Numbered from the stretch's first letter, positions 3,218 through 29,639 are shown. The stretch is 46,386 bases of DNA from a virus (IMGVR_UViG_2913167280_000002), one strand, 5' to 3'. Program-made: numbers and translations. The notes: generated by a model from the letters alone, not told the origin.

Positions 3218-3263
3218 TATAACCTACGGGTTATATAGTTAGTGATATAAACTACAGGTTATA
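3218..3263. promoter_or_regulatory. two tandem operator-like palindromes (TATAACC-N4-GGTTATA) upstream of the toxin-antitoxin operon
   Basis: tataacctacgggttata (3218-3235) and tataaactacaggttata (3246-3263) immediately upstream of the toxin start. Confidence 0.4.
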
Positions 3264-3272
3264 GGATTGAGC

Positions 3273-3620: not shown

Positions 3621-3919
3621 TGAGAACATTAGATGAGGCGATTGCCAGCCGTTCACCTGAAAGCCAGGCGCGAATTAAAGAAATGGCAGATGAGATGATT
3701 CTTGAGGTCGGCTTGCAGATGATGCGTGAAGAACTCCAGTTATCACAAAAACAGGTTGCTGAGGCGATGGGTATAAGCCAGCCAGCAGTAACAAAGCTGG
3801 AGCAGCGCGGAAATGATTTAAAGCTGGCGACATTAAAGCGTTACGTTGAAGCTATGGGAGGCAAATTAAGCCTGGATGTTGAGCTTCCCACAGGAAAACG
3901 AATAGCGTTTAACATCTGA
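3620..3919 (+). CDS. higA: HTH (XRE-family) antitoxin, HigA-like
   Basis: HTH segment LSQKQVAEAMGISQPAVTKLE; ATGA overlap with the upstream toxin gene. Confidence 0.6.
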   Translation: MRTLDEAIASRSPESQARIKEMADEMILEVGLQMMREELQLSQKQVAEAMGISQPAVTKLEQRGNDLKLATLKRYVEAMGGKLSLDVELPTGKRIAFNI

Positions 3920-3934
3920 TCAGAACGAATGATA

Positions 3935-3961
3935 AGCCCCTGTTGCAAAGGGGCTTTTTTG
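3935..3961 (+). terminator. rho-independent terminator
   Basis: Stem GCCCCT/AGGGGC followed by TTTTTT. Confidence 0.6.
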
Positions 3962-3965
3962 TGCT

Positions 3966-4082
3966 TATAGAATTATATAATTATATATTTATATAAAAAG
4001 TGCTTTACAGGTGGGAAAAAATTTCCTATGGTTATACCCGAAACCGAGCGATACCCGCCCTGGTTAAACCGGAGATAACCCG
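3966..4082 (+). promoter_or_regulatory. conserved promoter/leader module, copy A
   Basis: AT-rich octamer array, TTTACA (4004-4009), 17-bp spacer containing the GGAAAAAATTTCC inverted repeat, TATGGT (4027-4032), then a ~45-nt leader ending in GGAG-N8-ATG. Near-identical to copies B and C. Confidence 0.6.
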
Positions 4083-4463
4083 ATGAGCATGATTAAAATC
4101 CGCAAAAACGCTTTCCTTAAAATTCAAACTATCCTGGCTGGTTCTGTTGGCGTGATTTGCCGTTCTTCTTCAAGCCGCATCGATGACGGCTACGATGATG
4201 AGTATCGTGTGTCCTCGTGCGATGAGGCTTTAACCTGGCTGAAGGAGAATCAGGAACGTGCCCAGGTATATCTGGAAACAGAGAACGGCAATCAGATGTT
4301 GCGTATTAGCGGCCGTTATGGATTTGAAACTACATTCATTGCCTATTTTAATCAGGCTTACTTTGACAAGGAGCTGGCCTGGTACACTGATCGCATGATC
4401 AAAAGCGAGCCAGCCCCGATTACACCGCCGAACAATAAACCATTTTTATTCCTCGTTAAGTAA
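4083..4463 (+). CDS. hypothetical protein
   Basis: First gene behind module A; GGAG RBS. Confidence 0.45.
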   Translation: MSMIKIRKNAFLKIQTILAGSVGVICRSSSSRIDDGYDDEYRVSSCDEALTWLKENQERAQVYLETENGNQMLRISGRYGFETTFIAYFNQAYFDKELAWYTDRMIKSEPAPITPPNNKPFLFLVK

Positions 4464-4526
4464 ACACAATACGCAAAGTGTCATTTTGACACTTTGCGAG
4501 TGTTAATATTGTGCGAGGAGAATGCT

Positions 4527-4799
4527 ATGACGGGTTATGAATTGAAATTATGGCGTCGTGGGATGAACTGGACGCAGGAGCGAGCCGCCGAAGAATTTGG
4601 GATATCGTTGGCTACATATAAGCGATATGAGAAGGGGGAGCCGCCGAGGGTCATTGAGATGGCCATTCGCGTTCTGTCGTTTGACGATATGGTGAAGGAT
4701 CTTTCACACCTTGATAAAGACGCGATTCTGTTAAGGCTGCAAACCCTTGTATGGGAAAAGGTTAAAGTGTCGTCAGAATTGGAACAAGGGATCAAATGA
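4527..4799 (+). CDS. small HTH (XRE-like) transcriptional regulator
   Basis: GAGGAG RBS 6 nt upstream; HTH segment MNWTQERAAEEFGISLATYKRYEKG. Confidence 0.5.
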   Translation: MTGYELKLWRRGMNWTQERAAEEFGISLATYKRYEKGEPPRVIEMAIRVLSFDDMVKDLSHLDKDAILLRLQTLVWEKVKVSSELEQGIK

Positions 4800-4845
4800 T
4801 CCTTTACGGATCGTTTTATGGTGGTGTAATGTAAGCGCCAGAAAG

Positions 4846-4873
4846 ACAAAAACCGCCTTGCCGGGCGGTTTTC
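4846..4873. terminator. bidirectional rho-independent terminator
   Basis: Stem ACCGCC/GGCGGT flanked by an A-run and a T-run. Confidence 0.55.
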
Positions 4874-5571
4874 AGTCTGAAATTTAAATCTTGCTTGGTA
4901 GGCTGGATTTAAAAAGACACCTCTTGATTGGGGCGGCTTTCTTGCGTCTAAAGATAATCAAATCTTTTTGCGCCTGCAACCCCTTTTTTACTGGTGCCCA
5001 TTTCAGACTCACGCTCGCGTCGTTGTCTTTGCCACTTCGTTGGGTTCGGTGTTTTTGGGCGAAGTGGCGCGCGGGTATGCGTACAAGGGGAAAGTGTGCT
5101 GACGCAAGCCAGGAACAGCGATCTAAACTAAGTCGAGTCTGAGAAAGGCAGGAGTGCGACAACTCGCCTGTGCTCTATGAGCAGAAGAAGGTATATCAGA
5201 CGACCAATGGCATGATTGTGGGCCACAGGGCGCACACGGCGGCGAAGCATTGGAAACGATGTGGAGCTATCTGGTGGCATGAGTTCCGGTACTCGATCTC
5301 GAGCTTTTTTTGATGCTTTTGAGAAGGGGCCGGAACTCCGGTAAAGGGCACCCTGTATGGGGGGAGGGGGGGTTGTGTCTGAAGGGTGGTTATCGGTTAT
5401 GGTGGAATTATGATGCGTAGAAAAGCGAGTTTGCTGCAAGCTATTGGGTCCATTATTTCTTTGTTTCCGGCAGTTGATCATTTTCGTCATATGGCGACAC
5501 GTTCGAGTATGGGCTTGGCGCGTGACGCTGACGCTATTCGAAAGGATTTTCAGAAAGTCTCTGGCGTTGAT

Positions 5572-5604
5572 AAGAGAGAAAAGAGTAAGGGGCCGTAGCC
5601 CCTT
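5572..5604 (-). terminator. rho-independent terminator after the antirepressor gene
   Basis: Stem AAGGGGC/GCCCCTT; T-rich tract follows on the minus strand. Confidence 0.5.
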
Positions 5605-5608
5605 GTAG

Positions 5609-6760
5609 TTATGGTCTGCTTTTCTGTGCCAGCTTATCAGCACATGTTTTTATCAGATCCTGTAGTGTCCTGGCTGGCAGGTTTGCATCCAGAACGCTGA
5701 GTATGCTGTTGTGATCAGCTTGGTCGACTACTTTGCCTGTCGGTGGTAGTAGCTTGAGCTGAGGATTCAGGTTTTCGTCAAAGCTGATAAGTGCTCTGGC
5801 GTTTCTGAGCAGATCAAGAAGTAAGGCTGATATCACATTTTCCTGAGTCATTGCTGGCAGATTTAGCGCCGCTTTGGTTTTCCCTGTTGCCTTGTCAAAC
5901 TCCTTGATTAGTTCCTTTCTGTAGTTCGGTTCCGTTAATAGCCGATTATGCTCTGTTGCCGCGCGGATAATCGTTTTTTCCTGGTACAGTCGTTTAGCCA
6001 GATCGCGCTCGTACTGTGTTTTTAACACGCTGCTGATAGCGTTAAAGGCTTCAATGTAGGCCAGCTTGATATCTTTCACGCCTGGACCGTCGATGCTCTC
6101 CATGAGCAAGGTAAATCCGTCTTTTGTCATGCGATAGATTGTTATTTCGCGGTCGCTTCCTTCCAGCGGTCGTTGCTCTTTAAAGAAGTGACGCGCCGCA
6201 GCCGTGCGAGGAATGCGTAGCGCATCGATGGCCATAACGATGGAATTGTTTGTGGTGCTGAATGCCTGGGCAACATCGGCTGAGGTTGTGAGTGGCTCGT
6301 TGTTGCACACTTTAATGTAAAACATCGGTTTGGCGTTGAGCGTATCGACAACCTCACGAGCATTGTTTGGCGAGACGGTTACGGTCGCGGCCGTTTGCGC
6401 GTTCTGGCTGAAATAGCAGTCTTCCAGCCGTTCGAATACATCCCACGCCTGATCGGTTTCGAGCATTTTAGCGTGACGTGCAGCCCCGCGTTCTGTCCAG
6501 AGGATGAGAGAGCGAGTTTTGGGGGAAATTTGCACCTCATTTTGTGACTCGTTTAAAACTAGTCGCAAATTTTTGAGTTCATCACCAACAGCTTTAAAGA
6601 AGTGCTTCCCCTCAATGAACCGAGTTTTATTTTCATGGTGATTTTGCTGTATACGGATTGCTTCTGTTCCATAAAGGCGGGCGAGTAGCTCAGTTGTGAT
6701 TACTGGAATCTGATTATGCAGGATAGGCTGTAGGGTGTTAACGATCGGAAGCGTTTTCAT
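5609..6760 (-). CDS. phage antirepressor-like protein (Ant/Rha-type)
   Basis: 383 aa; N-terminal region resembles antirepressor/Rha regulatory domains; preceded by an overlapping small ORF as in P1 icd-ant. Confidence 0.5.
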   Translation of the reverse strand: MKTLPIVNTLQPILHNQIPVITTELLARLYGTEAIRIQQNHHENKTRFIEGKHFFKAVGDELKNLRLVLNESQNEVQISPKTRSLILWTERGAARHAKMLETDQAWDVFERLEDCYFSQNAQTAATVTVSPNNAREVVDTLNAKPMFYIKVCNNEPLTTSADVAQAFSTTNNSIVMAIDALRIPRTAAARHFFKEQRPLEGSDREITIYRMTKDGFTLLMESIDGPGVKDIKLAYIEAFNAISSVLKTQYERDLAKRLYQEKTIIRAATEHNRLLTEPNYRKELIKEFDKATGKTKAALNLPAMTQENVISALLLDLLRNARALISFDENLNPQLKLLPPTGKVVDQADHNSILSVLDANLPARTLQDLIKTCADKLAQKSRP

Positions 6761-8747: not shown

Positions 8748-8996
8748 TTACTTCTGGTTGTATTGAGCCTTGAGTAACTCAAAAGACTTTGTCAGCACTT
8801 CTTTCAATGACATATCCATTGAGCTGGCGAACGTTTTGTACTCGCGTTTAAATTCAGGGTCGACGTTAAACGCCATTTGTGCCCCACCTGATTTGGTTCT
8901 GGTTGGCGTTTCAGTCGGGTCGAAAACCTGCGGTTGTTCGATCGATGGCGGTACGCCTTTGCTGTTCTTCTTTGGTGGTTTTGATGGTGCGGCCAT
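8748..8996 (-). CDS. ribbon-helix-helix centromere-binding protein (ParG-like)
   Basis: 82 aa, basic flexible N-terminus then RHH-like MAFNVDPEFKREYKTFAS...; AGAGGGGA RBS; directly downstream of parA. Confidence 0.55.
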   Translation of the reverse strand: MAAPSKPPKKNSKGVPPSIEQPQVFDPTETPTRTKSGGAQMAFNVDPEFKREYKTFASSMDMSLKEVLTKSFELLKAQYNQK

Positions 8997-9039
8997 GTGT
9001 ATCCCCTCTTATATAAATCTATAAAACTATAATTATATA

Positions 9040-9693
9040 TTACGCGGCAGTAGTCAGAGCCTCAAGCTGGTTGATAATCCCCTGAATAACGTCGTCTGCC
9101 TTTTTGCGTGGCGCAACGTATGAGCACTCAATGAGGCTTAAGCCCTTATCCTGAGCTTTGCTCAGAGCTGGCTTGTGGGGAATGTACTTATCGACAACAA
9201 AGTATGGCGTATTAGCCAGGTACTCTTGGGCTTCGATGTAGTCAGCTTCGTTTTCAGCCGCGCCGGAAAACACCATGCAAATTTTCTTGATTGGTACGCC
9301 CTTTTTAACGATGCCGTGAGCAGTGTTAACGGTGGTTTCAAGGTCATCGGTAGAGAATCGGGTTGGCAAAATAACCATATCCAGAAATTCAGATAGCTTC
9401 GGTACTGATTCAGATGCGTAGGCACCGCCATCAACGATAACCAGGTCGTATACTTCTGATTCGATGATTTTCTGGACTTGTGATGGCGTGCCGCACGGCT
9501 GCGCCGCGATTGCAGGTTCGATATTGTTGGCCATTCTGCGTTGTACCCAACGCGTTACCGTTCCGTTAAGCACATCCATATCGATCAGGCATACATTCCA
9601 GCCAGCCTTTGCATAAGCAACTGCTAAAGCACGGGCAATGGTTGATTTGGTTACGCCGCCTTTTCCGTTGAAAATACCTACAGATATAGTCAT
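9040..9693 (-). CDS. parA: partition ATPase ParA (small type Ib)
   Basis: Deviant Walker A GKGGVTKST; about 217 aa; GGAG RBS before the second in-frame Met. Confidence 0.8.
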   Translation of the reverse strand: MTISVGIFNGKGGVTKSTIARALAVAYAKAGWNVCLIDMDVLNGTVTRWVQRRMANNIEPAIAAQPCGTPSQVQKIIESEVYDLVIVDGGAYASESVPKLSEFLDMVILPTRFSTDDLETTVNTAHGIVKKGVPIKKICMVFSGAAENEADYIEAQEYLANTPYFVVDKYIPHKPALSKAQDKGLSLIECSYVAPRKKADDVIQGIINQLEALTTAA

Positions 9694-9714
9694 TTGTCGA
9701 GACTCCATGTGTTT

Positions 9715-10308: not shown

Positions 10309-10965
10309 TCATAACCAGTTGACAACACTAACTACGCGGCCCAGAACTTTATAACGCTTAAATTCCTCGTTATTCAGATGCTTAGTGTTCATTTCAGCAT
10401 CCCTTTCGGTTGACAGCATAACAGCATTGTCACCCGGTATGACTCTACAGTGCCTCAAAACAACCAGGCCATTTCTGTCTTCAAGGGCATAGATCCCCTC
10501 ATGAATCTCTGTATCGTCTGTATCAATCAGGACTTGGGAGCCAGGGGATATTGTTGGTGACATTAACTCATCGTTGCTCTGGAGAACTGACAGAGACGAT
10601 GGGTTGATGTTCTTGCTTCGTAGAATCTCCTGTTCTATCGCCAGCACTGGCTTTTCTCCGGCGTGCGATGCTATGTCATTTTTTATAGCTACAAGCCCAG
10701 GAATAACAGGAGCGTTAGTATTCTGGGGTGGGAACGGGTTATCTGTTAAGCACGCGATATAAGGCGCTGATGCTTTCAGGGCGTGAGCGATTTTCTTGAT
10801 GGCAGGTATAGATGGTTGTCTTAATCCGGCCTCATAGTTCTGCAAGGTGCTTAAGCCTATTCCAGTGACTTGCTGGAGATCTCCGGCAGTCATGCCGGAT
10901 TGTTTCCGTAGAGTCTGAATGCGCAGACCTATTTCTTTCTTGATGTTCTCGTCGTTGCTTTTCAT
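10309..10965 (-). CDS. CI-like prophage repressor (HTH plus LexA/S24-like C-terminal domain)
   Basis: N-terminal HTH (LQQVTGIGLSTLQNYEAG) and C-terminal S24-like region; divergent from the early operon. Confidence 0.75.
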   Translation of the reverse strand: MKSNDENIKKEIGLRIQTLRKQSGMTAGDLQQVTGIGLSTLQNYEAGLRQPSIPAIKKIAHALKASAPYIACLTDNPFPPQNTNAPVIPGLVAIKNDIASHAGEKPVLAIEQEILRSKNINPSSLSVLQSNDELMSPTISPGSQVLIDTDDTEIHEGIYALEDRNGLVVLRHCRVIPGDNAVMLSTERDAEMNTKHLNNEEFKRYKVLGRVVSVVNWL

Positions 10966-17318: not shown

Positions 17319-17693
17319 ATGGCTTTTACCGACAAAGAAATGATTAAAGAAATCAAAGAACGTATCAGCAGCCTGGACGTGCGAGACAATATTGAGCGCC
17401 GGGCTTATGAAATAGCGTTAGCCTCGCTGGAAGCAGAACCGGTGGCATGGACTGATGACGAGGAACTGCGAGATGTTGAGCAAATTGGTTTAGGTTATTT
17501 ATTACCTTGTCCTCCAGATAAATACGCAGACCCGCGTCGTGTAATTCCTCTGTATCGCGAGCTGCCAGCACCGGTAGTGCCGGATGAAATGTATTGGCAG
17601 GATGCGCCAGTTGAAGGCAGCAGCAAAGCGGCTGCATACGCTACAGGCTGGAACGCCTGCCGCGCAGCCATGCTTCAGGGGAAAGGGAAGTGA
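17319..17693 (+). CDS. hypothetical protein
   Basis: Coupled ORF; shares an EPVAW segment with the next protein. Confidence 0.4.
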   Translation: MAFTDKEMIKEIKERISSLDVRDNIERRAYEIALASLEAEPVAWTDDEELRDVEQIGLGYLLPCPPDKYADPRRVIPLYRELPAPVVPDEMYWQDAPVEGSSKAAAYATGWNACRAAMLQGKGK

Positions 17694-17703
17694 TATGGCT
17701 ACT

Positions 17704-17970
17704 TTTACCAAAGAGCAATTGATTGCCCATATTCGTGAACGTAAGGAAGCGCGCCAGAGAATGTTGGATACGGTAACTATTAACCCCGGATTTCGTGAAT
17801 ATCTTGAAAGAGAGCTTGCTACAGATGAAATTGCACTGGCATCCCTGGCATCTGCACCTGTTGCATGGCTAGTTGGAGGGCGTTTGTTCACAACTGAGAT
17901 AGCTGCGGGGATGTACGCTAGTGAGGTGAGGAAAGCAGTTAAGCCGCTATTCTTTTCTGCACTACTGTGA
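17704..17970 (+). CDS. hypothetical protein (paralog-like to the preceding ORF)
   Basis: LASLASAPVAWLVG versus LASLEAEPVAWTDD in the 17319 protein. Confidence 0.35.
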   Translation, partial: FTKEQLIAHIRERKEARQRMLDTVTINPGFREYLERELATDEIALASLASAPVAWLVGGRLFTTEIAAGMYASEVRKAVKPLFFSALL

Positions 17971-19368: not shown

Positions 19369-19643
19369 CTGGTTTGAAGGCCGTTTTGTCATTTATTGGC
19401 ACAATTATATTGGTTGCATTCGGCGCGTTTGGTTTTGGTCGTATGAAGGGGCGAGAAAAGGCCGAAGATGAAGCTGAAAAGCAGCGCATTAATGAGAATG
19501 TAGCCGCCGTAAAAGCCACTGCGGAGCGGCGTATAGAAGTGACAAAAGAGGTGGGGAATGTACAGCAGAGTGTTAACCATATGGCTGATGACGATGTTGA
19601 TCGCGAGCTGCGGGAGTCGTGGAAGCGTCCCGGTGGTGGTTGA
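19365..19643 (+). CDS. i-spanin (Rz-like)
   Basis: N-terminal transmembrane helix then charged, coiled-coil-like region; follows the endolysin. Confidence 0.5.
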   Translation: MTGLKAVLSFIGTIILVAFGAFGFGRMKGREKAEDEAEKQRINENVAAVKATAERRIEVTKEVGNVQQSVNHMADDDVDRELRESWKRPGGG

Positions 19644-19767
19644 TACCGCCTGTGATTGGGTAAAGCCCATCTACCTGACTGATCACGACATCGATGTTAT
19701 GGACCGCCAGACAAAGAAAGATATTCTGGCTCATAACAGGGCATGGGAAATCAACTGCCGAAAGTAA
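19558..19767 (+). CDS. o-spanin lipoprotein (Rz1-like), overlapping the i-spanin gene in another frame
   Basis: Signal peptide with lipobox LIASC; starts inside the i-spanin gene in a different frame. Confidence 0.45.
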   Translation: MYSRVLTIWLMTMLIASCGSRGSVPVVVDTACDWVKPIYLTDHDIDVMDRQTKKDILAHNRAWEINCRK

Positions 19768-19936
19768 TATATATTTCTATAATTATATAAATATATAGTT
19801 ACAACATTCTATGCGCTTTTCTCATGGGTGCACGCATCAACCATGTTTGTCTGATATGCCGCCGCGCCCAAAAATCCTGAATTTATTGGCTGGGATTTTC
19901 GTGCGCGGCGCCACACCAGACAAACAAATCAAATAT

Positions 19937-20012
19937 GGCCCCTTAGCTCAGTGGTTAGAGCAGGCGACTCATAATCGCACGGTCATCGGTTCAAGTCCGG
20001 TAGGGGCCACCA
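19937..20012 (+). tRNA. tRNA with CAU anticodon (Met or lysidine-modified Ile)
   Basis: 76 nt; 7-bp acceptor stem, D-arm GCTC/GAGC, anticodon loop CTCATAA, T-loop TTCAAGT, encoded CCA; one G-A mismatch at the top of the anticodon stem. Confidence 0.75.
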
Positions 20013-20315
20013 ATTCACTCTCACACATAAAGATAAGCGCGGTGGAGTTACTTCTTCGTGCTCATCTTTATGCGTGCCTGGTGCACATTTCGGGAAGCCG
20101 TTGGTTAGTGAGTACAGGCAGGGCCTGTTATCCGCAAAGGGGTAAAAGCTGGAGCGGCACGGAACTGTAGCCGTGTTACCAAAACAGCGTTGTCGGGCGA
20201 TATCCGGCACACAACAGGCAAGGGCATTAATCAGTCTGGCTAGTGCCCTTTTCGTTGTGTCTGCTGTAGAGCTGGCCAGCGTTATGACTGCCTGAGCGGC
20301 GGAGACATAACTAAC

Positions 20316-20903
20316 ATGGAGGCAATTGCATTGTTTAATCTGATTTATGCAGATCCCCCCTGGGAATACAAAGACAAGTGTAAGGATGGGAATCGTGGCG
20401 CTGGTTTTAAGTATCCAACGATGAAAGCTGAGGAGATTGCTCGTATTCCTGTCTGGCAGCTTGCTAATCCTGAATCGTGTTTGTTGGCCATGTGGTGGGT
20501 TCCGACTCAGCCAGAAGAAGCGTTGCTGGTGGTGAAAGCATGGGGATTCAGGCTTATGACCATGAAGGGCTTCACATGGAACAAATGTGGTAGCCGACAA
20601 CCAGATAAGCTGGTGATGGGAATGGGGCATATGACTCGTGCAAACAGTGAAGATTGCTTGTTTGCAGTGAAAGGCAAACTACCGACACGTCTTGATGCGG
20701 GGATCATTCAGTCGTTTACATCGCCTCGTCTGGAGCATTCTCGGAAGCCTGATGTGGTCCGTGACAAGCTGGTAAAGCTGTTAGGCGATGTTCCTCGTAT
20801 TGAGCTGTTTGCTCGCGGTGATTTACCTGATGGCTGGCATGGCTGGGGCAACCAGTGCAACGGAGGTATCCAGTTGCATGATGCTCTCTGGCAAGTGTCA
20901 TAG
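20316..20903 (+). CDS. MT-A70-family DNA N6-adenine methyltransferase
   Basis: DPPW catalytic motif in LIYADPPWEY near the N-terminus; 195 aa. Confidence 0.7.
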   Translation: MEAIALFNLIYADPPWEYKDKCKDGNRGAGFKYPTMKAEEIARIPVWQLANPESCLLAMWWVPTQPEEALLVVKAWGFRLMTMKGFTWNKCGSRQPDKLVMGMGHMTRANSEDCLFAVKGKLPTRLDAGIIQSFTSPRLEHSRKPDVVRDKLVKLLGDVPRIELFARGDLPDGWHGWGNQCNGGIQLHDALWQVS

Positions 20904-21015
20904 AATTATATAATTATAGATTTATATAAAAAGTGCTTTACAGGTGGGAAAAAATTTCCTATGGTTATACCCGAAACCGAGCGATACCCGCCCTGGTTAA
21001 ACCGGAGATAACCCG
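20899..21015 (+). promoter_or_regulatory. conserved promoter/leader module, copy C
   Basis: Identical to copy A from the -35 region to the ATG, one substitution in the AT-rich box; TTTACA at 20937-20942. Confidence 0.6.
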
Positions 21016-21285
21016 ATGAAAGTACAAGACCGTGAAGTAGTAAAAAACCTCCTGCAATACCTGACCTCAAAAAACCTGACGGGCAGCGTTGAGTTCCGTG
21101 AAGCGTTAAAACATTTCAACGTCACTACGGTTTATCGTTGGGAAAACAAACATTCTGAAAGACCGTATGTGGTGGATGTTTTTGCGCCTGATATTGAGTG
21201 CGGTTTTGAGCGTCATTCGTTCAAGGAGAAACATTCCGCTGATGTTTTTTGTGAGGTTGTATGTGCGGCAGGAGATGATGAGTGA
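21016..21285 (+). CDS. hypothetical protein
   Basis: First gene behind module C. Confidence 0.4.
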   Translation: MKVQDREVVKNLLQYLTSKNLTGSVEFREALKHFNVTTVYRWENKHSERPYVVDVFAPDIECGFERHSFKEKHSADVFCEVVCAAGDDE

Positions 21286-21482
21286 TGCGTATTTCCTTCA
21301 AACGTGCGACTGAGCAGCAACGCAAAGAGCTTCTGGCTGATGATGTAGCGGCCGTTTATGACCTCATGAAAGAGGTTGTGGAATCAGGGAACTACACGGC
21401 GGCAAAGATGCTTAAACTGCAATTCTTGCTGGGCGACCTGAAATACAAATCCGAAGTTGTCGCCGGACGACGCGAGCATTAA
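21282..21482 (+). CDS. hypothetical protein
   Basis: ATGA-coupled ORF. Confidence 0.35.
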   Translation: MMRISFKRATEQQRKELLADDVAAVYDLMKEVVESGNYTAAKMLKLQFLLGDLKYKSEVVAGRREH

Positions 21483-21504
21483 ACCGTAACGATAACGAAC
21501 AACG

Positions 21505-21531
21505 AGCCTCGGCAATTGCCGGGGCTTTTTT
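21505..21531 (+). terminator. rho-independent terminator
   Basis: GC-rich palindrome GCCTCGGCAATTGCCGGGGC followed by TTTTTT. Confidence 0.55.
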
Positions 21532-21556
21532 ACATCCAGACAAAGGAGAACATGGG

Positions 21557-22012
21557 ATGCCTTCGACAAGCACCAAAAAAGAAATGGCGGTTAGTGATGT
21601 GCTTTACGCGCTTTCGACTATATGTGACGGAGCAATGATGAGGATGAAAGTCCTCCATGAAGCATACGGAAAAAGTCACGATGAGGCAGCTAAAGAATGC
21701 CTGAATGAGATTGTGGACTTCATTGATAGCCATCGGTCGCTGATAGCTCTCGATAACCAGCCGCAAGCCGAAGAATGCCAGAAGCGCGAGTATAAAACGA
21801 TATATGGGAATAAGTTCTTCTGTCTAAGCGAGTTGGCTGCAAAGGTGGCCGACATTCTGGAGAACAACGGCGGTCGAATGCGTCAGGTTAGCTATCTGGC
21901 TGAATATGAATCTCTAATCATGTTAGTTGATCATTTAGTTGATACAGGAGCTTTACAGCTCAACTGCCTAAGGCTATCTGGTCACCCGATAAAAATGAAT
22001 GGAAGGATATAA
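21557..22012 (+). CDS. hypothetical protein
   Basis: AAGGAG RBS 8 nt upstream. Confidence 0.4.
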   Translation: MPSTSTKKEMAVSDVLYALSTICDGAMMRMKVLHEAYGKSHDEAAKECLNEIVDFIDSHRSLIALDNQPQAEECQKREYKTIYGNKFFCLSELAAKVADILENNGGRMRQVSYLAEYESLIMLVDHLVDTGALQLNCLRLSGHPIKMNGRI

Positions 22013-22014
22013 CC

Positions 22015-22221
22015 GTGGACTTGCCGAGTGATTTGTTCTGGTTTCCGCTTCCAATAAGAGATTTGTTGGTATTTCTGGCTGGCGCTTACGTCTGGAGAAA
22101 AGCGAAGGACACCTCGTTATCTTTGAGGTTTGTCTTAGCTATATCGGTAGGAACCGCGCTGGGAACGGCGTATCTCTTGATATTACTGGAGATATTCATT
22201 GAAGAATGGATAGTTTCATGA
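22015..22221 (+). CDS. small membrane protein
   Basis: GTG start; two hydrophobic segments. Confidence 0.3.
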   Translation: MDLPSDLFWFPLPIRDLLVFLAGAYVWRKAKDTSLSLRFVLAISVGTALGTAYLLILLEIFIEEWIVS

Positions 22222-22382
22222 ATGGTGTTGGCATTTTTCTGATGGTTGTGGCCGTGTGTTTTTGTATCTCGCTGGTGGTTATCGCTGGTGTCCTGTGGCG
22301 CATCTTAGTGGCGCAGAGAGCTTTTCGGCGTAAGCGGGAGCAATTGCGGTCAGGGTGCGTTTCATTCAAGTCAATGAGATAG
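22218..22382 (+). CDS. small membrane protein (54 aa, not in the ORF track)
   Basis: ATGA overlap with the preceding ORF; hydrophobic helix then a basic tail. Confidence 0.3.
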   Translation: MNGVGIFLMVVAVCFCISLVVIAGVLWRILVAQRAFRRKREQLRSGCVSFKSMR

Positions 22383-22398
22383 ATGTAGGGTTATTTAT

Positions 22399-23112
22399 AT
22401 GATGCATTTAAAAAATATCAGTGCGCCGCTTATTGATCCCCGCGGCAAACATCCAGATGTGCTACAGCTTTTTACTGAAGACGGAAGAAATTGGTATGAG
22501 GAGCAGAAGAAATTTCAGCCTCACACTTTAAAGATGATGTATGACAATAACGGCATTATCCGCAGTGTTTCGAAAGATGTATCGTTGCTTTGCCCGGATG
22601 GGATGAGTGTTATTGAGTTACCTGATACCGATGAGTATCGAAAAGTAGATAACACAGGTGATTGGCTCGTCAAAGATGTTCAAATTGTGAAGCGTGAAGG
22701 TCCAGAGCAGCGAGAAAACTCACCGATATCTATTGGTGCCGAGGCTGTTCCGTTTAAGTTTGAATTATCCCAACTGGTAACAATGCGTATCAGTGACGAA
22801 TGGGGAGAAGTTCAAGCCCGTGCTCAGTATGCAAATGGCGAAAACCAGTATCTGATTCACTATCAGGCGGCTGATGGCCGTGCTACTACAGAGTGGTTCG
22901 GTGAGTCGATGCTGATTGCGATGGAGGATAAACGTCATCCTGGCTGTCCTGTTTTTGCTTGTATTGATCTGCCAGAAGGCGCGGTACTTGAAGACGACAA
23001 AGAAGAATGGTCGCCTGATGGCGAACTTGTCATTACCGGAATCGTGGATGGTAAGCCGAGATACTCTCGCATTGAGGTAAATAACGGTCACATCTGTTTG
23101 ATACCAGAGTGA
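22399..23112 (+). CDS. protein with tail-fibre-assembly-chaperone-like N-terminal region
   Basis: MMHLKNI...DGRNWYEEQKKFQP resembles the start of Mu/P1-type tail fibre assembly proteins as I recall them; C-terminal half unrelated. Confidence 0.35.
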   Translation: MMHLKNISAPLIDPRGKHPDVLQLFTEDGRNWYEEQKKFQPHTLKMMYDNNGIIRSVSKDVSLLCPDGMSVIELPDTDEYRKVDNTGDWLVKDVQIVKREGPEQRENSPISIGAEAVPFKFELSQLVTMRISDEWGEVQARAQYANGENQYLIHYQAADGRATTEWFGESMLIAMEDKRHPGCPVFACIDLPEGAVLEDDKEEWSPDGELVITGIVDGKPRYSRIEVNNGHICLIPE

Positions 23113-23346
23113 CGCATTACAGCAGCTCTTGTGCTAATCAGGGGCTGCGATAATGCGCAAACCAAAGCTGCCTCATTAACTCCAGCTCGCTGTGGAGTTA
23201 ATGCTGGTGGCTTTTTTATTACTGGAAGGTGGGCGACCGCCGTCAGTTGCGACCTGACGACAGTCATTCATACCCACAGGGTGCCGTGGATACAAACCGA
23301 GGCCCACTTGCTTGCACAAGCGAGGGGATTTTAGCGGATAAACGGC

Positions 23347-23970
23347 ATGACAAAACAACTTAATGTGGTTTCTTTACCACTTTCTGTGTTGATTGGTTAT
23401 GAAAAGAACGCTCGCACACACTCCGTGGAGCAGGTAGATCAGATTGTTGCCAGCATACAGGAGTACGGATGGACTAATCCGATCCTGATAGACGAGAACA
23501 ACGTTGTAATTGCTGGTCATGGTCGAATTGCTGCGGCCACTCAGTTGGGGATGGATGATGTTCCCTGCATTGTTCTGGCTGGGCTAACGGAGAATCAGAA
23601 GAAGGCATATCGTCTGGCCGACAACCGTATTCCGCTGAATGCTGGTTGGGATGAAGAGCTGTTAAGCGCGGAGCTTGCAGATCTTGCGGCCGATGATTTT
23701 GCTCTGGACTCAATTGGTTTTACTCAGCGCGAACTGGATAACTTATTGAGTGCGGCGGTCTACGATGACACAGAGGGTATGGATATCCCATTTGAGAAGG
23801 ATGAGGCCAAATCAGGCGTAAAAGTTCAGTACCTGTCATTTGGAGGTCATAAAATCCCGGCAACGGATGAGGAAGCGGATCGTTTTGACTGCGCGGTGTC
23901 TCGTTATGTTGATGATAATGGCAGCTATATCGGATTTGTATCCGCATTGCTGGCTGGGGAGGTGTGCTGA
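23347..23970 (+). CDS. ParB-like nuclease-domain protein
   Basis: ParB N-terminal-domain pattern ...NPILIDENNVVIAGHGRIAAA...; paralogous to the 26636 protein. Confidence 0.6.
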   Translation: MTKQLNVVSLPLSVLIGYEKNARTHSVEQVDQIVASIQEYGWTNPILIDENNVVIAGHGRIAAATQLGMDDVPCIVLAGLTENQKKAYRLADNRIPLNAGWDEELLSAELADLAADDFALDSIGFTQRELDNLLSAAVYDDTEGMDIPFEKDEAKSGVKVQYLSFGGHKIPATDEEADRFDCAVSRYVDDNGSYIGFVSALLAGEVC

Positions 23971-25343
23971 TGCTTCACCTGAATTACGACATAACGCACC
24001 TACGCGGCGCGGAATATAACCCGCGTTTTATCGGTGAGGATGATCTTGCGAGGCTGGAGGAAAGCGTCAGGGAGCTGGGGCTTGTGAAGCCATTGATAGT
24101 GCGCGGCGATTTGCTGGTGGCGGGACACCAAAGGACGAAGGCGCTACGTAAGTTGGGAATAACGCGTGCTGCGGTGTATGTGTTGCCCTGTGAAACGACG
24201 GTATACGACGAAGTTCGGTTTAACCAACTGCATAACGGAACGGATTTTGATAGCGGAGATGAGCGTTGCAGGGTGTCCGGTCTGGAAGATAAGCATGGTT
24301 TTGTTCAGGTATCGGCAAGCCAGATCTCAGGCAATATGCGCGCGAAAATGGCATATGTTCGAAAGAACATAGCGGAACTGGTTATCAAGTATGGTCCGTG
24401 GGGTGGTTGTGTTGCTACTCAGTCTGGCGAGGTTATTCACTGTGCTCAGTATGCATTAGCAGCGAAGATGACGCGCACACCGCTAACGGTGTTTGTGATC
24501 CCTGATGTTGAGAAGGAAAAATACCAAAGTTATCTGAATAAAACTTATGGTGTATTTGAGTATTCTCATCTGGAGAAAACAACATACATCCAGACGTATG
24601 CGCAGCTTATGCGGTTGCGTAATGGTGGCAGCCTGAAATCAAACCTGTATGAGTCGTTGATCCTCCCGATCATTGCCAAGACGCCAAGAGGAATTGATTT
24701 TGGTTCGGGGCAGGGAGACTACGCGCGAATGCTCAGGGCAAAGGGGTATAACCTGCATGATCTTGAGCTTTTCCGCCGTAAGGGCGCAGGAAACACTCTG
24801 GATAGGGCTGCAACAAACCGAATGATTGATACGCTGGTGGACGACTTAAAAACGCGAGGGCGTTACGACTACGTGATTTGCGATAGCGTTTTGAACTCGG
24901 TCGATAGTGTCGAGGCTGAATGGTCCGTTCTGACGGTTCTGAAAGGCCTGTGTAAAGCTGGTGGGTCAATATTCTTTTCTGGCCGTAGCCGTGGAGAGCT
25001 GGAGAGTGTGCTTAAACGAACGCAAGCTGCTAGCTCTATAAGTCGGCTTTATTTTATTGACCATAACGGTTTTTCTGCTTTGTACCGGAAGGGACACTGG
25101 TTTTATCAGAAGTTTCATTCTGATGAGGAAGTGAAGCAATTGTGCCGTGAGCATAGCTTCAGAATAAAGCGGTCGGTATTTAACGGTAAGAGCTGGTATT
25201 TGCACGTTATTAACGATGATTCTCTTCGCTGGGAGAGTCTGGAGAAAGCTGTTCGTTTTGAGTTTGAGTTGCCGTTGCCTGGTGGTTCAACAATCGGACG
25301 ATCTGATGATGTGTTGGCGGCTTTCCGGCCGTTGATTAAGTAG
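23970..25343 (+). CDS. fusion protein: ParB-like N-terminal domain plus class I SAM-dependent methyltransferase domain
   Basis: N-terminal ParB-like block (LVAGHQRTKALRKLG); C-terminal GIDFGSGQGDY motif I and YDYVICDSVLNSV motif II; no DPPY-type amino-methyltransferase motif seen. Confidence 0.55.
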   Translation: MLHLNYDITHLRGAEYNPRFIGEDDLARLEESVRELGLVKPLIVRGDLLVAGHQRTKALRKLGITRAAVYVLPCETTVYDEVRFNQLHNGTDFDSGDERCRVSGLEDKHGFVQVSASQISGNMRAKMAYVRKNIAELVIKYGPWGGCVATQSGEVIHCAQYALAAKMTRTPLTVFVIPDVEKEKYQSYLNKTYGVFEYSHLEKTTYIQTYAQLMRLRNGGSLKSNLYESLILPIIAKTPRGIDFGSGQGDYARMLRAKGYNLHDLELFRRKGAGNTLDRAATNRMIDTLVDDLKTRGRYDYVICDSVLNSVDSVEAEWSVLTVLKGLCKAGGSIFFSGRSRGELESVLKRTQAASSISRLYFIDHNGFSALYRKGHWFYQKFHSDEEVKQLCREHSFRIKRSVFNGKSWYLHVINDDSLRWESLEKAVRFEFELPLPGGSTIGRSDDVLAAFRPLIK

Positions 25344-25359
25344 TGTGTAGGAGGCGCTG

Positions 25360-26079
25360 GTGGCTGACAGAATTGAGATAAAGATGGATTTTTCTTCTCA
25401 GGATATTCAACGACAACTCCAGCGCCTTGAAGAACGCGAATTGCCATTCGCAATGGCGCTTGCGGCAACCAGAACGGCAAAGGCTTCTCAGGCTGCGATT
25501 AAGAATGAAATTAATCGGGTATTTGACAGGCCCACGCCGTGGATTCAGAACTCTACTTACGTTTTGGCCGCAAAGAAGAGTGATCCTACAGCCATTGTGT
25601 ATGCTCGTGAATGGGGAGGAACGCCAGCCCCTGTAACGTTGACTCCGCAAATCGAAGGTGGCCAACGACAGTACAAACGCTCAGAAGGGGCGCTAAGGGC
25701 TGGTGGATATTTGCCTAACGGCTGGCAGCTTGCTCCTGGTCCCGGCGCAAAGCTGGACAAATACGGGAATATTTCGCGGGGGCAATTACAGCAGGTCTTA
25801 TCTGGCCTAAGAGTTCAGCGAGATGCGCATCAAAATCGCCGTCAGGGCAAGCCTACGGAGTTTTTTGTTGTTCGACCTGGTACAAGTAACCCGCTTCAAC
25901 CAGGCGTCTGGCAGCGCGTTGGGCGGCGTCCTACGTTGATCCTTACGTTTATCCAGCAACCTAACTATTCGCAGCGTCTTGATTGGCATGGCGTGGCGCT
26001 ACGTGCTGGTGAGGATGCGTTTGCTGATGAAGTCACAAAGGCTATTGATGACATTCTTTCTAAGACGTTCTCTCGTTAA
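25360..26079 (+). CDS. hypothetical protein
   Basis: GTG start with AGGAGG RBS. Confidence 0.4.
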   Translation: MADRIEIKMDFSSQDIQRQLQRLEERELPFAMALAATRTAKASQAAIKNEINRVFDRPTPWIQNSTYVLAAKKSDPTAIVYAREWGGTPAPVTLTPQIEGGQRQYKRSEGALRAGGYLPNGWQLAPGPGAKLDKYGNISRGQLQQVLSGLRVQRDAHQNRRQGKPTEFFVVRPGTSNPLQPGVWQRVGRRPTLILTFIQQPNYSQRLDWHGVALRAGEDAFADEVTKAIDDILSKTFSR

Positions 26080-26635
26080 TCATCGTGTGGTTGATGGTGT
26101 TGTTATGCAGGGTGTATTCACTGTGTTCTGTAGCGTCGCTCGCTGGCTGTCTGTGGGTGAGCACGAGCATCGTTTCATCGTCCGGCAGAATTGGGTCCTT
26201 CTGGCCAAAAGCGTTGGATGCGGGTCATTCGAACCCCGATGTTCGGCTAGCTAAACGTGAAAAAAGTTAGGTTAAAAGTTGCGGTAAAAGAAATTTACTC
26301 ATCTCATTGAAAAATATCGGGAAAACGTGATTTTTTGCTGTATTTGTGCTGGTAAAAAGAAAGTAGAAAATTTTCTTTTAGATCATCAAGATACGCGCAG
26401 ATCTTTAACCAATGTGATGTTGTTCTGATAAAAATCGTTATAAATCATGCAAATACATCCAATCTTTTAACCAAAACACCATCTCAAGATCCTTTTCACT
26501 TATAAAAACTTAATAAAATCAGATAATTATGCTGGTTTGTGTGATTTTTTATGAGTAAAAAGATCGTCATTTTCTCTTTTAGTATCAATAAGTTAAACAG
26601 TTTTCTTTAACCTGTTGTGTTATGGCGGTTAAAAA

Positions 26636-27226
26636 ATGGCTCTAAAAATCGAATATTTACCAGTCGGTAAGCTGCTCAGATACGCCAAAAATTCACGGAC
26701 TCATTCAGATGAGCAGGTTGAACAGTTGGTGAACAGTATCCGTGAGTTCGGTTTCACTAATCCTGTGCTGATCGATGAAAAGAATGAACTGATTGCGGGG
26801 CATGGTCGGCTTGCAGCAGCCGAAATTCTGGAAATGGATAAAGTTCCGGCGATTCGGTTGAGTAACCTTTCTGAAAAACAGAAGAAGGCTTACAGGATTG
26901 CAGATAACAAGCTGGCCTTAAATGCTGGCTGGGATATGCAGCTTCTGGCCGAAGAAGTCAAAGAGTTAATGGATGATGATTTTGATATTGATCTGCTTGG
27001 GTTTAATGATGCAGAACTTGACGAAATGTTAAGCGATGAACAGCCGCAGGAAGAAGACGATAATTCTTCCCCTGTTGTTCAAATTAAGTACCTGGCTATT
27101 GATAAAGAACGTATTCCCGCGACGGATATGGAAATTGCATTGTTGCTGGATGTTTATCGTCAGTACCACGACGCGCATGAAACGCATGAGGGATTTGTTC
27201 AGTATCTTGCTAATGGTTGCAAGTAA
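26636..27226 (+). CDS. ParB-like nuclease-domain protein (second paralog)
   Basis: Same domain pattern as the 23347 protein; its stop overlaps the terminase small subunit start. Confidence 0.6.
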   Translation: MALKIEYLPVGKLLRYAKNSRTHSDEQVEQLVNSIREFGFTNPVLIDEKNELIAGHGRLAAAEILEMDKVPAIRLSNLSEKQKKAYRIADNKLALNAGWDMQLLAEEVKELMDDDFDIDLLGFNDAELDEMLSDEQPQEEDDNSSPVVQIKYLAIDKERIPATDMEIALLLDVYRQYHDAHETHEGFVQYLANGCK

Positions 27227-27777
27227 TGGCCATCGTCAGTAAGTCAGAGTTTGCCCGCCGGAAAGGTATTTCTCCGGCAATGGTTACGAAGCTCTGTCGT
27301 TCCGGTCGCATTCCAGTGCTGAAAAGCGGCAAGCTGGATTTTGATAAAGCTAGTGCGGCTTATGAAGCGAGCCGACAGGTTGGTCGTGAGGTATCTGCTG
27401 AAAACGGAAAAAGAGGGCATGGGATATCTTCGGAACAACCAGAGTTACCCGCTGATGATGCCGGATTAGCTGGTGGTACTTCCGGTGTTGCGGTGCAATT
27501 CAACAAGGCTAAGACCGCAGAAAAAATTTATCAGGCAAAGCTGAAACGCCTTGAATTTGAAGAAAAGGAAGGCTCTCTCATCGCTAAAGATGCGGTCAGG
27601 GATGATGCATTTCTGGCAGCTAATGAATTGCGTAGCCGCTTATTTAGTATTGCTCCAAGAGCAGCTCCCCGTTGTGAAGGCAAAACAGCCAGGGAGATCG
27701 AACGCATTATTGAAGACGAGATTAATTTTGCGCTTCAGGCGCTCCAGGAATCCCGATTTATTAAGCAGGAAGAATAA
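27226..27777 (+). CDS. terminase small subunit (lambda Nu1-like)
   Basis: N-terminal HTH (SKSEFARRKGISPAMVTKLCRSGRIPV) resembling the Nu1 N-terminus; directly upstream of the large subunit. Confidence 0.55.
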   Translation: MAIVSKSEFARRKGISPAMVTKLCRSGRIPVLKSGKLDFDKASAAYEASRQVGREVSAENGKRGHGISSEQPELPADDAGLAGGTSGVAVQFNKAKTAEKIYQAKLKRLEFEEKEGSLIAKDAVRDDAFLAANELRSRLFSIAPRAAPRCEGKTAREIERIIEDEINFALQALQESRFIKQEE

Positions 27778-27782
27778 ACCTC

Positions 27783-29639
27783 ATGGGCGAAACAGTATGG
27801 AGCACCGCTTTTTTCCGTGCGCTTCGCCCTAAATCACGGCTAACTGTTTCCGAATGGGCTGATAAGTATCGTCATGTAGCGCCGGGAACGTCTCCAGAGC
27901 CAGGGCCGTGGCGTACAAGCCGAGTGCCATATTTGCGTGAACCAATGGATGTTATTGGTGACGCTGATACAGAAACAGTAGTGATGCAATGTAGCTCGCA
28001 AATTGGTAAATCCGAATTACAGCTAAATGTTATGGGTTACTTTGCAGATCAGGAGCCATCTCCTCAGTTGATGATTTATCCAACGGTAGAGGCGGCTGAG
28101 GCTTTTTCAAAAGAGCGTATTGATCCGACGTTCAAATATTCCCCTGGTTTGAAACACAAGCTGCATGAAGGGAAAGAGGGGCGCGGTGCAGCCAAAAAGT
28201 CCAGCACGACTATACGTATGAAGCATTACGCTGGTGGATATATAGCACTTGTTGGTGCTAATTCCCCAGCAGGTCTTGCATCCAGGCCAATTCGAATACT
28301 GTTAGCTGATGAGATTGATCGTTACGGTGTGACGCAGGAGGGCGACCCACTAAAACTAGGTATTCAGCGTACTACCAACTTTCATAATCGTAAGAAAGTT
28401 TTTGTTTCTACTCCTGTTTTGGAGGAAACGAGCAAAATCCACAAGTGGTTTAAGCTCTCCGATCAGCGTTACTACCATGTTCCTTGCCCATGTTGTGGCA
28501 CCATGCAGGTGATGAAATGGTCGCAAGTCAGATGGGATAAGAGCGATTCAGGTGAGGCGTTACCGGAAACGGCCAGATATGAGTGCTGTGAGTGCGGCGG
28601 GATTATGCGCGGATCTGGTAAACCAGACGTTGATTGGTTGGCGAAGGGGGTATGGATAGCTGAACATACTGGAGTTAAAGGTATTGTTGGTTTTCATATT
28701 AACAGTCTTTACTCCCCGTGGGTTGCATTGTCAGAGCTGGTTGAAGAATTTACGGAAGCAACCAGAAACCGCGATAAAAATGGATTAATGGAGTTTATTA
28801 ACCTTAAGCTGGGTGAGCCATGGAAAGAGGATGCTAAAGACGATATCGATCCTGAATACTTGTTGCAACGCAGAATAAGGTTTGAAGAGTTTTTACCAGA
28901 TGATGTTTTATTGTTAAGTGCAGGTGTTGACGTACAGGACACGTATTTAGTTTGTGAATTGGTCGGTTGGGGAAAAGGTAAGGAATCATGGGGGATTGAA
29001 TATAAAATATTTCCTGGCGATCCCGCACAAGATGTTGTCTGGAAACAACTTGATGAATACTTACTCCGTAGCTGGTCATTTCGTGACGGTCGAAAATTAC
29101 AGATTTCTTCCGTTTGTATTGACTCTGGTGGGCATTTTACGACAGAGGTATATCGCTTTACTAAGCCGCGAGAATCAAGGCGAATATACTCTATCAGAGG
29201 TCGTGGTGGGGTAGGTTTACCGTTTATAGGAAAGCCAAGCAATAATAACCGTGTAGGCGCTATGTTGTTTAATTTGGGGGTTGATGATGGTAAAGGAACC
29301 ATCATGGCACGAATTAAGCTACATGATCCTGGTCCTGGTTATATGCATTTCCCATTAGATTCTGACAGAGGATATGATACCGAATACTTTAAAGGGCTAT
29401 TATCAGAGAAAAAAATATTTGAATATAAAAATGGGCAGACAAAAGAAAAGTGGGTGAAAGTCTACGAGCGTAACGAGCCTCTTGATTGCCGTAACTATGC
29501 AACTGCTGCGATGGAAATTCTGAACCCTAATTTTAACTGGCTTGCCGAACAGGAAATGCGAGGTAATGTGTATGTGCAGAACTCGTCAGGTATACGTAGA
29601 AGACGCCGTAGAGTTATAAGTAAAGGCGTAACCATATAG
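27783..29639 (+). CDS. terminase large subunit (lambda gpA family)
   Basis: 618 aa in the packaging-gene position with gpA-like N-terminal region. Confidence 0.8.
   Translation: MGETVWSTAFFRALRPKSRLTVSEWADKYRHVAPGTSPEPGPWRTSRVPYLREPMDVIGDADTETVVMQCSSQIGKSELQLNVMGYFADQEPSPQLMIYPTVEAAEAFSKERIDPTFKYSPGLKHKLHEGKEGRGAAKKSSTTIRMKHYAGGYIALVGANSPAGLASRPIRILLADEIDRYGVTQEGDPLKLGIQRTTNFHNRKKVFVSTPVLEETSKIHKWFKLSDQRYYHVPCPCCGTMQVMKWSQVRWDKSDSGEALPETARYECCECGGIMRGSGKPDVDWLAKGVWIAEHTGVKGIVGFHINSLYSPWVALSELVEEFTEATRNRDKNGLMEFINLKLGEPWKEDAKDDIDPEYLLQRRIRFEEFLPDDVLLLSAGVDVQDTYLVCELVGWGKGKESWGIEYKIFPGDPAQDVVWKQLDEYLLRSWSFRDGRKLQISSVCIDSGGHFTTEVYRFTKPRESRRIYSIRGRGGVGLPFIGKPSNNNRVGAMLFNLGVDDGKGTIMARIKLHDPGPGYMHFPLDSDRGYDTEYFKGLLSEKKIFEYKNGQTKEKWVKVYERNEPLDCRNYATAAMEILNPNFNWLAEQEMRGNVYVQNSSGIRRRRRRVISKGVTI

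Follow-up and report, generated by a model that had tools for sequence, protein, structure and literature searches.

Why does a phage carry three genes for ParB-like proteins, one of them fused to a methyltransferase, just ahead of its terminase genes? The question is raised by positions 23347-27226 of the viral DNA IMGVR_UViG_2913167280_000002, a stretch of 46,386 nucleotides (nt) referred to here as the window. In this region, two stand-alone ParB-like proteins, ParB#1 and ParB#2, bracket a protein that combines a ParB fold with a class I S-adenosylmethionine (SAM) methyltransferase (hereinafter the fusion) and a protein of 239 amino acids (aa), p239. An earlier note on this DNA suggested that the three ParB-like proteins may form one module, for DNA modification or for packaging recognition. 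The open reading frames (ORFs) are all located where that note placed them, and the assignment of three of the products to the ParB fold is upheld. The region, however, is a composite of four units, namely a cassette of ParB#1 and the fusion, p239, the cohesive-end (cos) site, and ParB#2 as part of the packaging operon. For the cassette, we tentatively favor, with a probability of about 0.45, the reading that ParB#1 and the fusion form a late, nucleoside triphosphate (NTP)-gated complex that methylates nucleic acid in the service of anti-defence.

The ParB#1-fusion cassette

ParB#1 (207 aa; 23347-23970, plus strand) is a stand-alone protein of the ParB/Srx fold with an isoelectric point (pI) of 4.25 that matches phrog_620 with an E value of 4e-74. 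The fusion (457 aa from the ATG; 23970-25343, plus strand; a GTG at 23964 is open as an alternative start) matches phrog_5475 over its entire length (E 5e-261; residues 1-457 on positions 1-457 of the 458 in the profile). The ParB#1 stop codon and the ATG of the fusion overlap by 1 nt (TGATG, 23968-23972), and the juxtaposition of the two genes extends far beyond the window. Relatives of the fusion, down to 33% identity, come from 69 viral loci, 54 of them with enough upstream sequence. By ORF clustering, 46 of these 54 loci have a ParB gene of the phrog_620 type as the immediate upstream neighbour of the fusion, a number that rises to about 52 once tblastn hits are added; the distance from the partner stop to the fusion start is between -14 and +5 nt in 33 of 42 loci. 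By gene order and spacing, phrog_620 and phrog_5475 constitute a conserved, translationally coupled pair, in which the fusion almost always has ParB#1 as its abutting neighbour.

The cassette keeps company with packaging genes of more than one kind. The gene for the terminase large subunit (TerL) starts 0.2-1.5 kb downstream of it in 30 of the 54 loci, and three families are represented among the TerLs concerned (gpA, Terminase_6 and TerL_ATPase/TerL_nuclease). The cassette therefore seems to be tied to where the packaging genes lie and how they are expressed, and not to one packaging chemistry, and the specifically lambda-like setting envisaged in the earlier note does not hold. Furthermore, two sibling phages, L078 and L079 (IMG/VR UViG_2718218113_000001 and 2825473869_000001, locus 3240-6359), lack the cassette. 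Their homology to the window begins at position 25349, and compared with the window their TerL is 87-88%, their ParB#2 79% and their p239 83-84% identical; the gene order in L079 is tail-fibre-assembly-like gene, p239, ParB#2 and the terminase small subunit (TerS), and that in L078 is alike from p239 on. These siblings are natural deletion controls: with so similar a terminase they do without the cassette, and the ParB#1-fusion pair is thus accessory and not required for packaging by this terminase.

In 33 viral loci, the gene directly downstream of the fusion encodes a Cys/His protein of about 145 aa (for example, L015:1610-2041 and L066:9949-10374) with the pattern W..HCxxC..YxCGV..NxH..CRNFQF, where W, HC, Y.C, N.H and CRN are invariant. 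No relative of this protein was found in Pfam, PHROGs, PADLOC or the PDB, and the window holds no homolog; the match of its profile to polyubiquitin in the PDB (E 1.8e-12) is an artefact, the sum of eight 4.7-bit repeats. An apparent co-occurrence of the fusion with ParB-DPPY methylases was likewise dismissed, the hits being cross-hits of the ParB domain of the fusion itself (query residues 1-74). In other lineages, two paralogs of the ParB partner were observed, one on each side of the fusion in L035:6913-10520 and in tandem upstream of it in L060:6581-7983, which suggests that duplication of the partner is recurrent.

Three parts can be delineated in the fusion, all encoded on the plus strand: a ParB/Srx NTP-binding fold with an invariant box I YNPR and box II AGHQR (residues 1-95; 23970-24254), a conserved alpha/beta middle domain of unassigned fold family (residues 96-200; 24255-24569), and a class I SAM methyltransferase with a family-specific C-terminal extension (residues 201-457; 24570-25343). 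The family profile, built from 40 sequences, matches Bacillus subtilis Spo0J (6sdk) with an E value of 1.8e-8, and N17-P18-R19 and G52-H53-Q54-R55 are invariant in the family alignment. The methyltransferase part scores 31.2 bits with PF13489 (cut-off, 27) and has IDFGSGQGDY as motif I. Additional motifs conserved in the family are RFNQLHNGTD, GPWGG and HCAQYALA in the middle domain and YRKGxWFYQKFH in the C-terminal extension. Mean column identity is 57% over the 40 sequences, which range down to 44% identity, and all three parts are strongly conserved, so the fusion has the appearance of an active enzyme under selection. More than 820 homologs are spread across Proteobacteria, and most of those among the matches listed combine PF02195 with PF13489. 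The order of secondary structure elements in the middle domain repeats that of residues 1-90, the ParB fold; an internal duplication of this fold was considered and is not demonstrated, the profile-profile comparison of residues 1-95 with residues 96-200 giving only an E value of 0.077.

The earlier note remarked that the fusion lacks a DPPY motif, and this is true of the entire family: [DNS]PP[YFWH] and PC[QN] motifs are present in 0 of the 40 members, an ENV motif occurs in three, at non-homologous positions, and PF00145 was not found in the Pfam search. These results set the fusion apart from the standard amino- and C5-methyltransferases of DNA; given that the catalytic motifs of both classes are missing, either its chemistry or its target is likely to be non-canonical. 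The closest relatives of the methyltransferase domain in the PDB, by sequence and by structure, are UbiG-like, toxoflavin, tRNA (Trm9, METTL6) and cap methyltransferases. A comparison of this part with 1.84 billion representative proteins yielded 401 matches at E <= 1e-3; among the 150 listed, most are proteins of about 440-530 aa matched at residues ~200-460, that is, with the same architecture, and the remainder are shorter proteins, possibly fragments or stand-alone forms. The possibility that the earlier note had set against itself, a standard DNA methylase accompanied by dispensable ParB duplicates, does not describe this locus: the fusion is non-standard, and ParB#1 belongs with the fusion almost wherever the latter is found.

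ParB#2 (196 aa, pI 4.54; 26636-27226, plus strand; phrog_620, E 5e-75) is another stand-alone protein of the ParB/Srx fold and, as previously proposed, a paralog of ParB#1, with 48% identity over the full length (E 5e-62). The phrog_620 match covers residues 1-198 of ParB#1 (profile positions 3-196 of 217) and residues 1-195 of ParB#2 (positions 5-210 of 217). With the Pfam ParB_N domain, ParB#2 scores 33.7 bits, ParB#1 23.9 bits and the fusion 23.2 bits, the last two falling just under the cut-off of 26.3 bits. Despite these weak hits, the assignment to the ParB fold is solid: it rests on the phrog_620 matches at about 1e-74, on the Spo0J match of the fusion profile, and on the alignment of ParB#2 with Noc/ParB structures, in which the box I Arg, the last box II Arg and the box III Asn (N91) are conserved and box II reads GHGR in place of GERR.

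The two stand-alone proteins share a distinct conserved C-terminus of 50 aa (E166, G186 and F187 are conserved) and are strongly acidic, with a charge of -14 to -18 over residues 96-150, whereas the fusion is basic (pI 9.07). ParB_N is the only Pfam domain recognised in them, a helix-turn-helix (HTH) or other DNA-binding domain not being detected, and neither a [DNS]PP[YFWH] motif nor a methylase domain was found in either. Over residues 1-140, they share 50-64% identity with the N-terminal domain of ParB-[D/S]PPY DNA methylases. A search of viral loci with the ParB alignment gave at least 600 matches, and such ParB-DNA amino-methylases, which are 390-520 aa long with [D/S]PPY at residue ~190-260, account for about 42 of the 80 best loci. 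ParB#1 and ParB#2 also show partial matches to the N-terminal part of phrog_498 and to the PADLOC model MTase_II; only the ParB part of that model was matched, and PADLOC made no other defence-system assignment. RefSeq annotates their products as ParB N-terminal domain proteins.

ParB#2, the cos site and p239

The ParB#2 stop codon and the TerS ATG overlap by 1 nt (TAATG, 27224-27228). The earlier note was right to report the coupling of these genes and missed the overlap of the same type between ParB#1 and the fusion. TerS (27226-27777, plus strand; phrog_57, E 7e-42), the start of which agrees with the annotated TerS of the Yersinia phage record (903-1454, mapping to 27226), is followed by a TerL of the lambda gpA type (27783-29639, plus strand; PF05876, GpA_ATPase, E 7e-76; PF20454, GpA_nuclease, E 1e-84). 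The sibling phages that lack the cassette retain ParB#2. The order p239, ParB-type gene and TerL recurs in L090, where a 502-aa ParB-DPPY protein is encoded between the other two, and in L091, and a gpA TerL lies shortly downstream of the ParB-type gene in several loci of ParB-DNA methylases. By these comparisons, ParB#2 is a methylase-less occupant of a slot that is held in other phages by ParB-DNA methylases. It is the first gene after cos and opens the packaging operon, in which it is coupled to TerS.

The cos site can be placed by comparison of two Yersinia phage records. The record of vB_YpM_44 ends with GCGGGTCATTCGAAC and starts with CCCGATG, and that of vB_YpM_41 ends with GGATGCG and starts with GGTCATTCGAACCCCGATG, so that the two differ only in which end holds a particular 12 nt. 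Cohesive ends are classically recognised by such a terminal difference, which points to 26223-26234 as cosN, with GGTCATTCGAAC as the probable 12-nt core; the assignment derives from the way in which the records were deposited. The predicted cosN is situated within a short imperfect palindrome (CGGGT CATTCGA ACCCCG), 144 nt past p239 and 401 nt ahead of ParB#2, inside a non-coding gap of 556 nt. Given a cos at this site, between p239 and ParB#2, the three ParB-like genes would be divided between opposite ends of the virion chromosome: the right end would hold ParB#1 and the fusion together with p239, and the left end ParB#2 followed by TerS and TerL.

Between cosN and ParB#2 there is an AT-rich leader (26235-26635; GC 0.399) that may be cosB-like. 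It contains CTTT(T)AACC in both orientations (26270, 26402, 26464, 26604 and 26627) along with other direct and inverted repeats; 4 of the 19 matches of the motif in the entire window fall in the leader, within ~370 nt. Relative to the Yersinia phages, the leader also carries a 90-bp insertion (26361-26450). With a gpA-type TerL, a small subunit, a portal of the lambda B type and 12-nt cohesive ends, the last inferred from the records, the window shows the features of lambda-like cos packaging.

The remaining gene of the region, p239 (25360-26079, plus strand; pI 10.1), probably encodes a structural neck or tail-completion protein. Its predicted fold is similar to that of a solved member of the HK97 gp10 family (SaPI1 neck, PDB 9mu2 chain P), from which it differs in being twice as long, with long N- and C-terminal helices, and in being encoded upstream of cos and TerS, not among the head-tail genes. 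It has no match in Pfam, NCBIfam or PDB sequences, and in PHROGs matches only phrog_1924 (‘minor tail protein’); its 106 homologs are either without a source name or annotated as hypothetical or uncharacterised. In phages devoid of both the ParB genes and the fusion, distant homologs (32-41% identity) are encoded directly upstream of a Nu1-like TerS and a gpA TerL. The association of p239 is thus with the gpA packaging genes around it, and it does not belong to a ParB module. With p239 following gpA terminases in this way, cos splitting the set and the cassette behaving as an indel, the single module of the earlier note is not supported.

Genomic setting of the region

The window is a phage-plasmid with a partition pair of its own. 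Its gene set includes a resolvase, an IncFII-type RepA, a small ParA with a ribbon-helix-helix (RHH)-like gene, and a CI-like repressor (94-1810; 8748-9708, minus strand; 10309-10965, minus strand). The ParA is a small ATPase resembling type Ib (9040-9708, minus strand) and is followed by its own 82-aa RHH-like gene (phrog_6024). Positions 23000-27800 match 62 plasmids, all non-mobilizable, enterobacterial and 47-50 kb in size, 59 of which are 98% identical over the full length; Escherichia phage vB_EcoM-613R2 is also 98% identical, and three Yersinia pestis myophages show 97.5-97.8% identity as far as their records extend.

The genes studied here are part of a rightward block that extends from lysis into packaging genes in this cos-packaging phage-plasmid, in the order holin, endolysin, Rz, tRNA-Met, MT-A70 methylase, tail-fibre-assembly-like chimera, a hairpin with a U-run, and then ParB#1. 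The MT-A70-type DNA adenine methyltransferase (20316-20903, plus strand; PF05063 over the full-length domain, E 2.9e-23) has DPPW at residue 13 and matches PADLOC MTase_II with an E value of 7.5e-69; it shares the rightward block with the cassette, and among its PHROG relatives is phrog_21315, a fusion of such a domain with a ParB fold. This stand-alone enzyme comes after the tRNA-Met (CAT), the two occupying 19937-20903. The chimera (22399-23112) joins an N-terminus of the tail-fibre-assembly type (Caudo_TAP, phrog_136) to a C-terminus matching phrog_1935. It is encoded before cos; the tail-fibre end of the tail genes is ~20 kb away, on the other side of cos.

Between the chimera and ParB#1 lies a terminator-like hairpin with a U-run (23164-23223, plus strand). 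Its RNA fold has -27.5 kcal/mol (z -5.4), a stability reached by 0 of 200 shuffles, and is followed by UUUUUUAUU; it could be an intrinsic terminator or a target of antitermination. The hairpin was not among the results of a consensus terminator scan, and the consensus promoter and terminator scan of 19600-27400 gave results not above chance. Upstream of the holin, two overlapping ORFs in different frames (17319-17970) both match phrog_5117/phrog_660, which could reflect a frameshift or a programmed slip.

Function of the cassette and its implications

In the reading that we favor, the acidic ParB#1 and the basic, three-domain fusion would join through their ParB folds into an NTP-gated complex that methylates nucleic acid late in infection. 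The likeliest substrate would be replicated phage DNA before encapsidation, and the methylation would function as an anti-restriction or anti-defence mark. The best functional analogy to ParB#1 and the fusion is offered by 5mYOX176 and ParB176 (PMC13229309), where a stand-alone ParB-like protein is encoded beside, and needed by, a DNA-modifying enzyme; the enzyme here differs in being a SAM methyltransferase with a ParB fold of its own. DNA T-dioxygenases depend for their activation on phage ParB-like proteins in which no DNA-binding domain is obvious (PMC13229309). Furthermore, according to a recent survey, phages and prophages are enriched in ParB-MT23 and ParB-N6N4 fusions, and some fusions of ParB with SAM methyltransferases bind ATP (PMC12704722). 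By analogy and context, the DNA-modification role put forward in the earlier note is plausible.

A more specific version, which we consider unlikely as a whole, holds that ParB#1 and the fusion, joined in other phages by the Cys/His protein, carry out an NTP-gated methylation of DNA, or more broadly of packaged nucleic acid, that yields neither N6-methyladenine nor N4- or 5-methylcytosine (m6A/m4C/m5C); the methylated position might be, for example, a ring nitrogen, an oxygen or part of the backbone. Acting on concatemeric DNA immediately prior to packaging, the system would serve anti-defence, with ParB#2 as a possible second loader tied to the terminase.

Several observations weigh against the favored reading. 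The methyltransferase domain of the fusion is nearest to small-molecule, tRNA and cap methyltransferases, and no close stand-alone relative of this domain that could guide the choice of substrate was found among the 401 matches (150 listed). With the DPPW adenine methylase already encoded, the phage has no evident need of another DNA methylase. The two stand-alone ParB proteins are strongly acidic, and a DNA-binding domain was not recognised in either. Finally, the strong hairpin ahead of the cassette renders its co-transcription with the upstream genes uncertain.

The kinship of the methyltransferase domain is also the starting point of an alternative to which we assign modest odds, namely that the target is not DNA and is a small molecule, a nucleotide, RNA or a protein, of host or phage origin. 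The ParB fold would then bind NTP or transfer phosphate as in SerK and sulfiredoxin, and the fusion would be an effector of anti-defence or host takeover, possibly carried in the virion like the Dar proteins of P1. The absence of DNA methyltransferase catalytic motifs throughout the family and the presence of a canonical DNA methyltransferase in the same phage are in line with this possibility, as are the statements of the survey that a ParB fold can bind ATP, GTP or CTP and is also employed by enzymes that do not act on DNA (PMC12704722) and the proposal that ParB-like domains encoded beside virion genes belong to injected effectors (PMC5512222). Unlikely, and applicable mainly to ParB#2, is a role in packaging, in which the ParB-like proteins would be NTP-dependent nickases or loading factors that help the terminase at cos, as HNH proteins do for HK97-type terminases, with ParB#2 as the core and the cassette as a regulator. 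ParB-type genes do lie directly upstream of TerS/TerL in many phages, ParB#2 overlaps the TerS ATG and is present in all close relatives, repeated motifs are found between cosN and ParB#2, and a ParB-methyltransferase of a Bacillus cereus prophage adjoins TerS, its ParB domain nicking DNA non-specifically (PMC3592412). The parallel with the HNH-cos-terminase arrangement of HK97-like phages (PMC3592412 and references therein) extends to an accessory gene at the right end by cos and terminase genes at the left end; here, however, there is no HNH domain, the right-end gene is p239 with its neck fold, and the gpA terminase has a nuclease domain of its own. Moreover, the cassette-less siblings package their DNA, the cassette is found with three unrelated TerL families, gpA phages with p239 and without any ParB gene exist, TerS has its own N-terminal HTH-like region (weak hits), and a methyltransferase has no obvious place in cos cleavage. 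The packaging-recognition role suggested in the earlier note is thus unlikely for ParB#1 and the fusion, an indel among siblings, and is possible for ParB#2 alone.

The names attached to these genes in RefSeq and phage records, ParB or ‘partitioning protein’, together with the IncFII RepA and the ParA-type ATPase of the window, evoke plasmid partition, with the ParB-like proteins as centromere-binding partners of the phage-plasmid ParA. The proteins do share with ParB of ParABS systems and with Noc the N-terminal NTPase fold, the box I Arg, the last box II Arg and the box III Asn; they differ in box II, which is GHGR or GHQR and not GERR, and in the lack of a C-terminal dimerisation domain hit and of an adjacent parA. 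ParB#1 and ParB#2 score only 29.6 and 40.1 bits with TIGR00180 (cut-off, 58.45), neither an HTH nor the ParA-binding motif [LFI]G[KR]G[LFI] was found in them, the only ParA gene of the window is ~14 kb away on the other strand and paired with the RHH-like gene, and the same gene pair is widespread beside terminases in viral contigs. We reject partition, the least probable of the explanations, on the grounds of the missing HTH and ParA-binding motif, the sub-threshold TIGR00180 scores and the separate ParA/RHH pair. Only slightly less improbable is control of late or packaging genes by ParB-fold transcription regulators akin to VirB, KorB and IbrB. NTP-dependent regulators exist among ParB-fold proteins. 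The survey mentions DndB (PMC12704722). ParB#2, moreover, heads the packaging operon downstream of the repeat-rich leader. However, no DNA-binding domain was detected with Pfam in these strongly acidic proteins, and regulation leaves the fused methyltransferase unexplained.

With regard to precedent, the claim of the earlier note that such a system had not been described is overstated. The fusion is a member of phrog_5475 and of the ParB-CTPase-fold + Methyltransf_23 fusions, which it matches over the full length, with the same PF02195 + PF13489 combination and in the same phage and prophage context; the survey lists these fusions as phage-enriched, with no function assigned (PMC12704722, PNAS 2025). 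The ParB-N6/N4 fusions (phrog_498; Bce_0392 of B. cereus, PMC3592412; PADLOC MTase_II, PDLC03229), among which the B. cereus prophage ParB-methyltransferase adjoining TerS was reported in 2012 (PMC3592412), have the N-terminal domain related to residues 1-140 of ParB#1 and ParB#2 and are likewise encoded just upstream of TerS/TerL. ParB#1 and ParB#2 differ from them in lacking a methylase domain and in having their own 50-aa C-terminus, and the methyltransferase domain of the fusion belongs to a different class I clade without [D/S]PPY. As far as we found, the additions of the present analysis are the near-obligate ParB partner, the association with three TerL families, the presence and absence of the cassette in siblings, the Cys/His partner, the position of cos and the fold of p239; the upstream partner, the middle domain, the Cys/His protein and the synteny with terminases do not figure in the survey, as far as it was read (PMC12704722).

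These findings contradict no current expectation, and they bear on annotation: the name ‘chromosome partitioning protein’ is wrong for the ParB-like genes, the product noted as a 239-aa ‘unknown’ is probably structural, and the cos of this phage-plasmid group can be placed, with the reservation given above, at 26223-26234. According to the survey, ParB-methyltransferase fusions are among the commonest ParB architectures of phages, those of the Methyltransf_23 type having no assigned substrate or role (PMC12704722). The culturable phage-plasmids of Escherichia coli and Yersinia, with natural siblings that lack the cassette, are a convenient system for the target of the enzyme and the role of its ParB partner, and this biology is directly testable in them. 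Should the target prove to be DNA, the methylation chemistry would lie outside the three classical motif-defined classes, and the cassette would be a further case of ParB folds loading or activating DNA-modifying enzymes, a rule that is now emerging.

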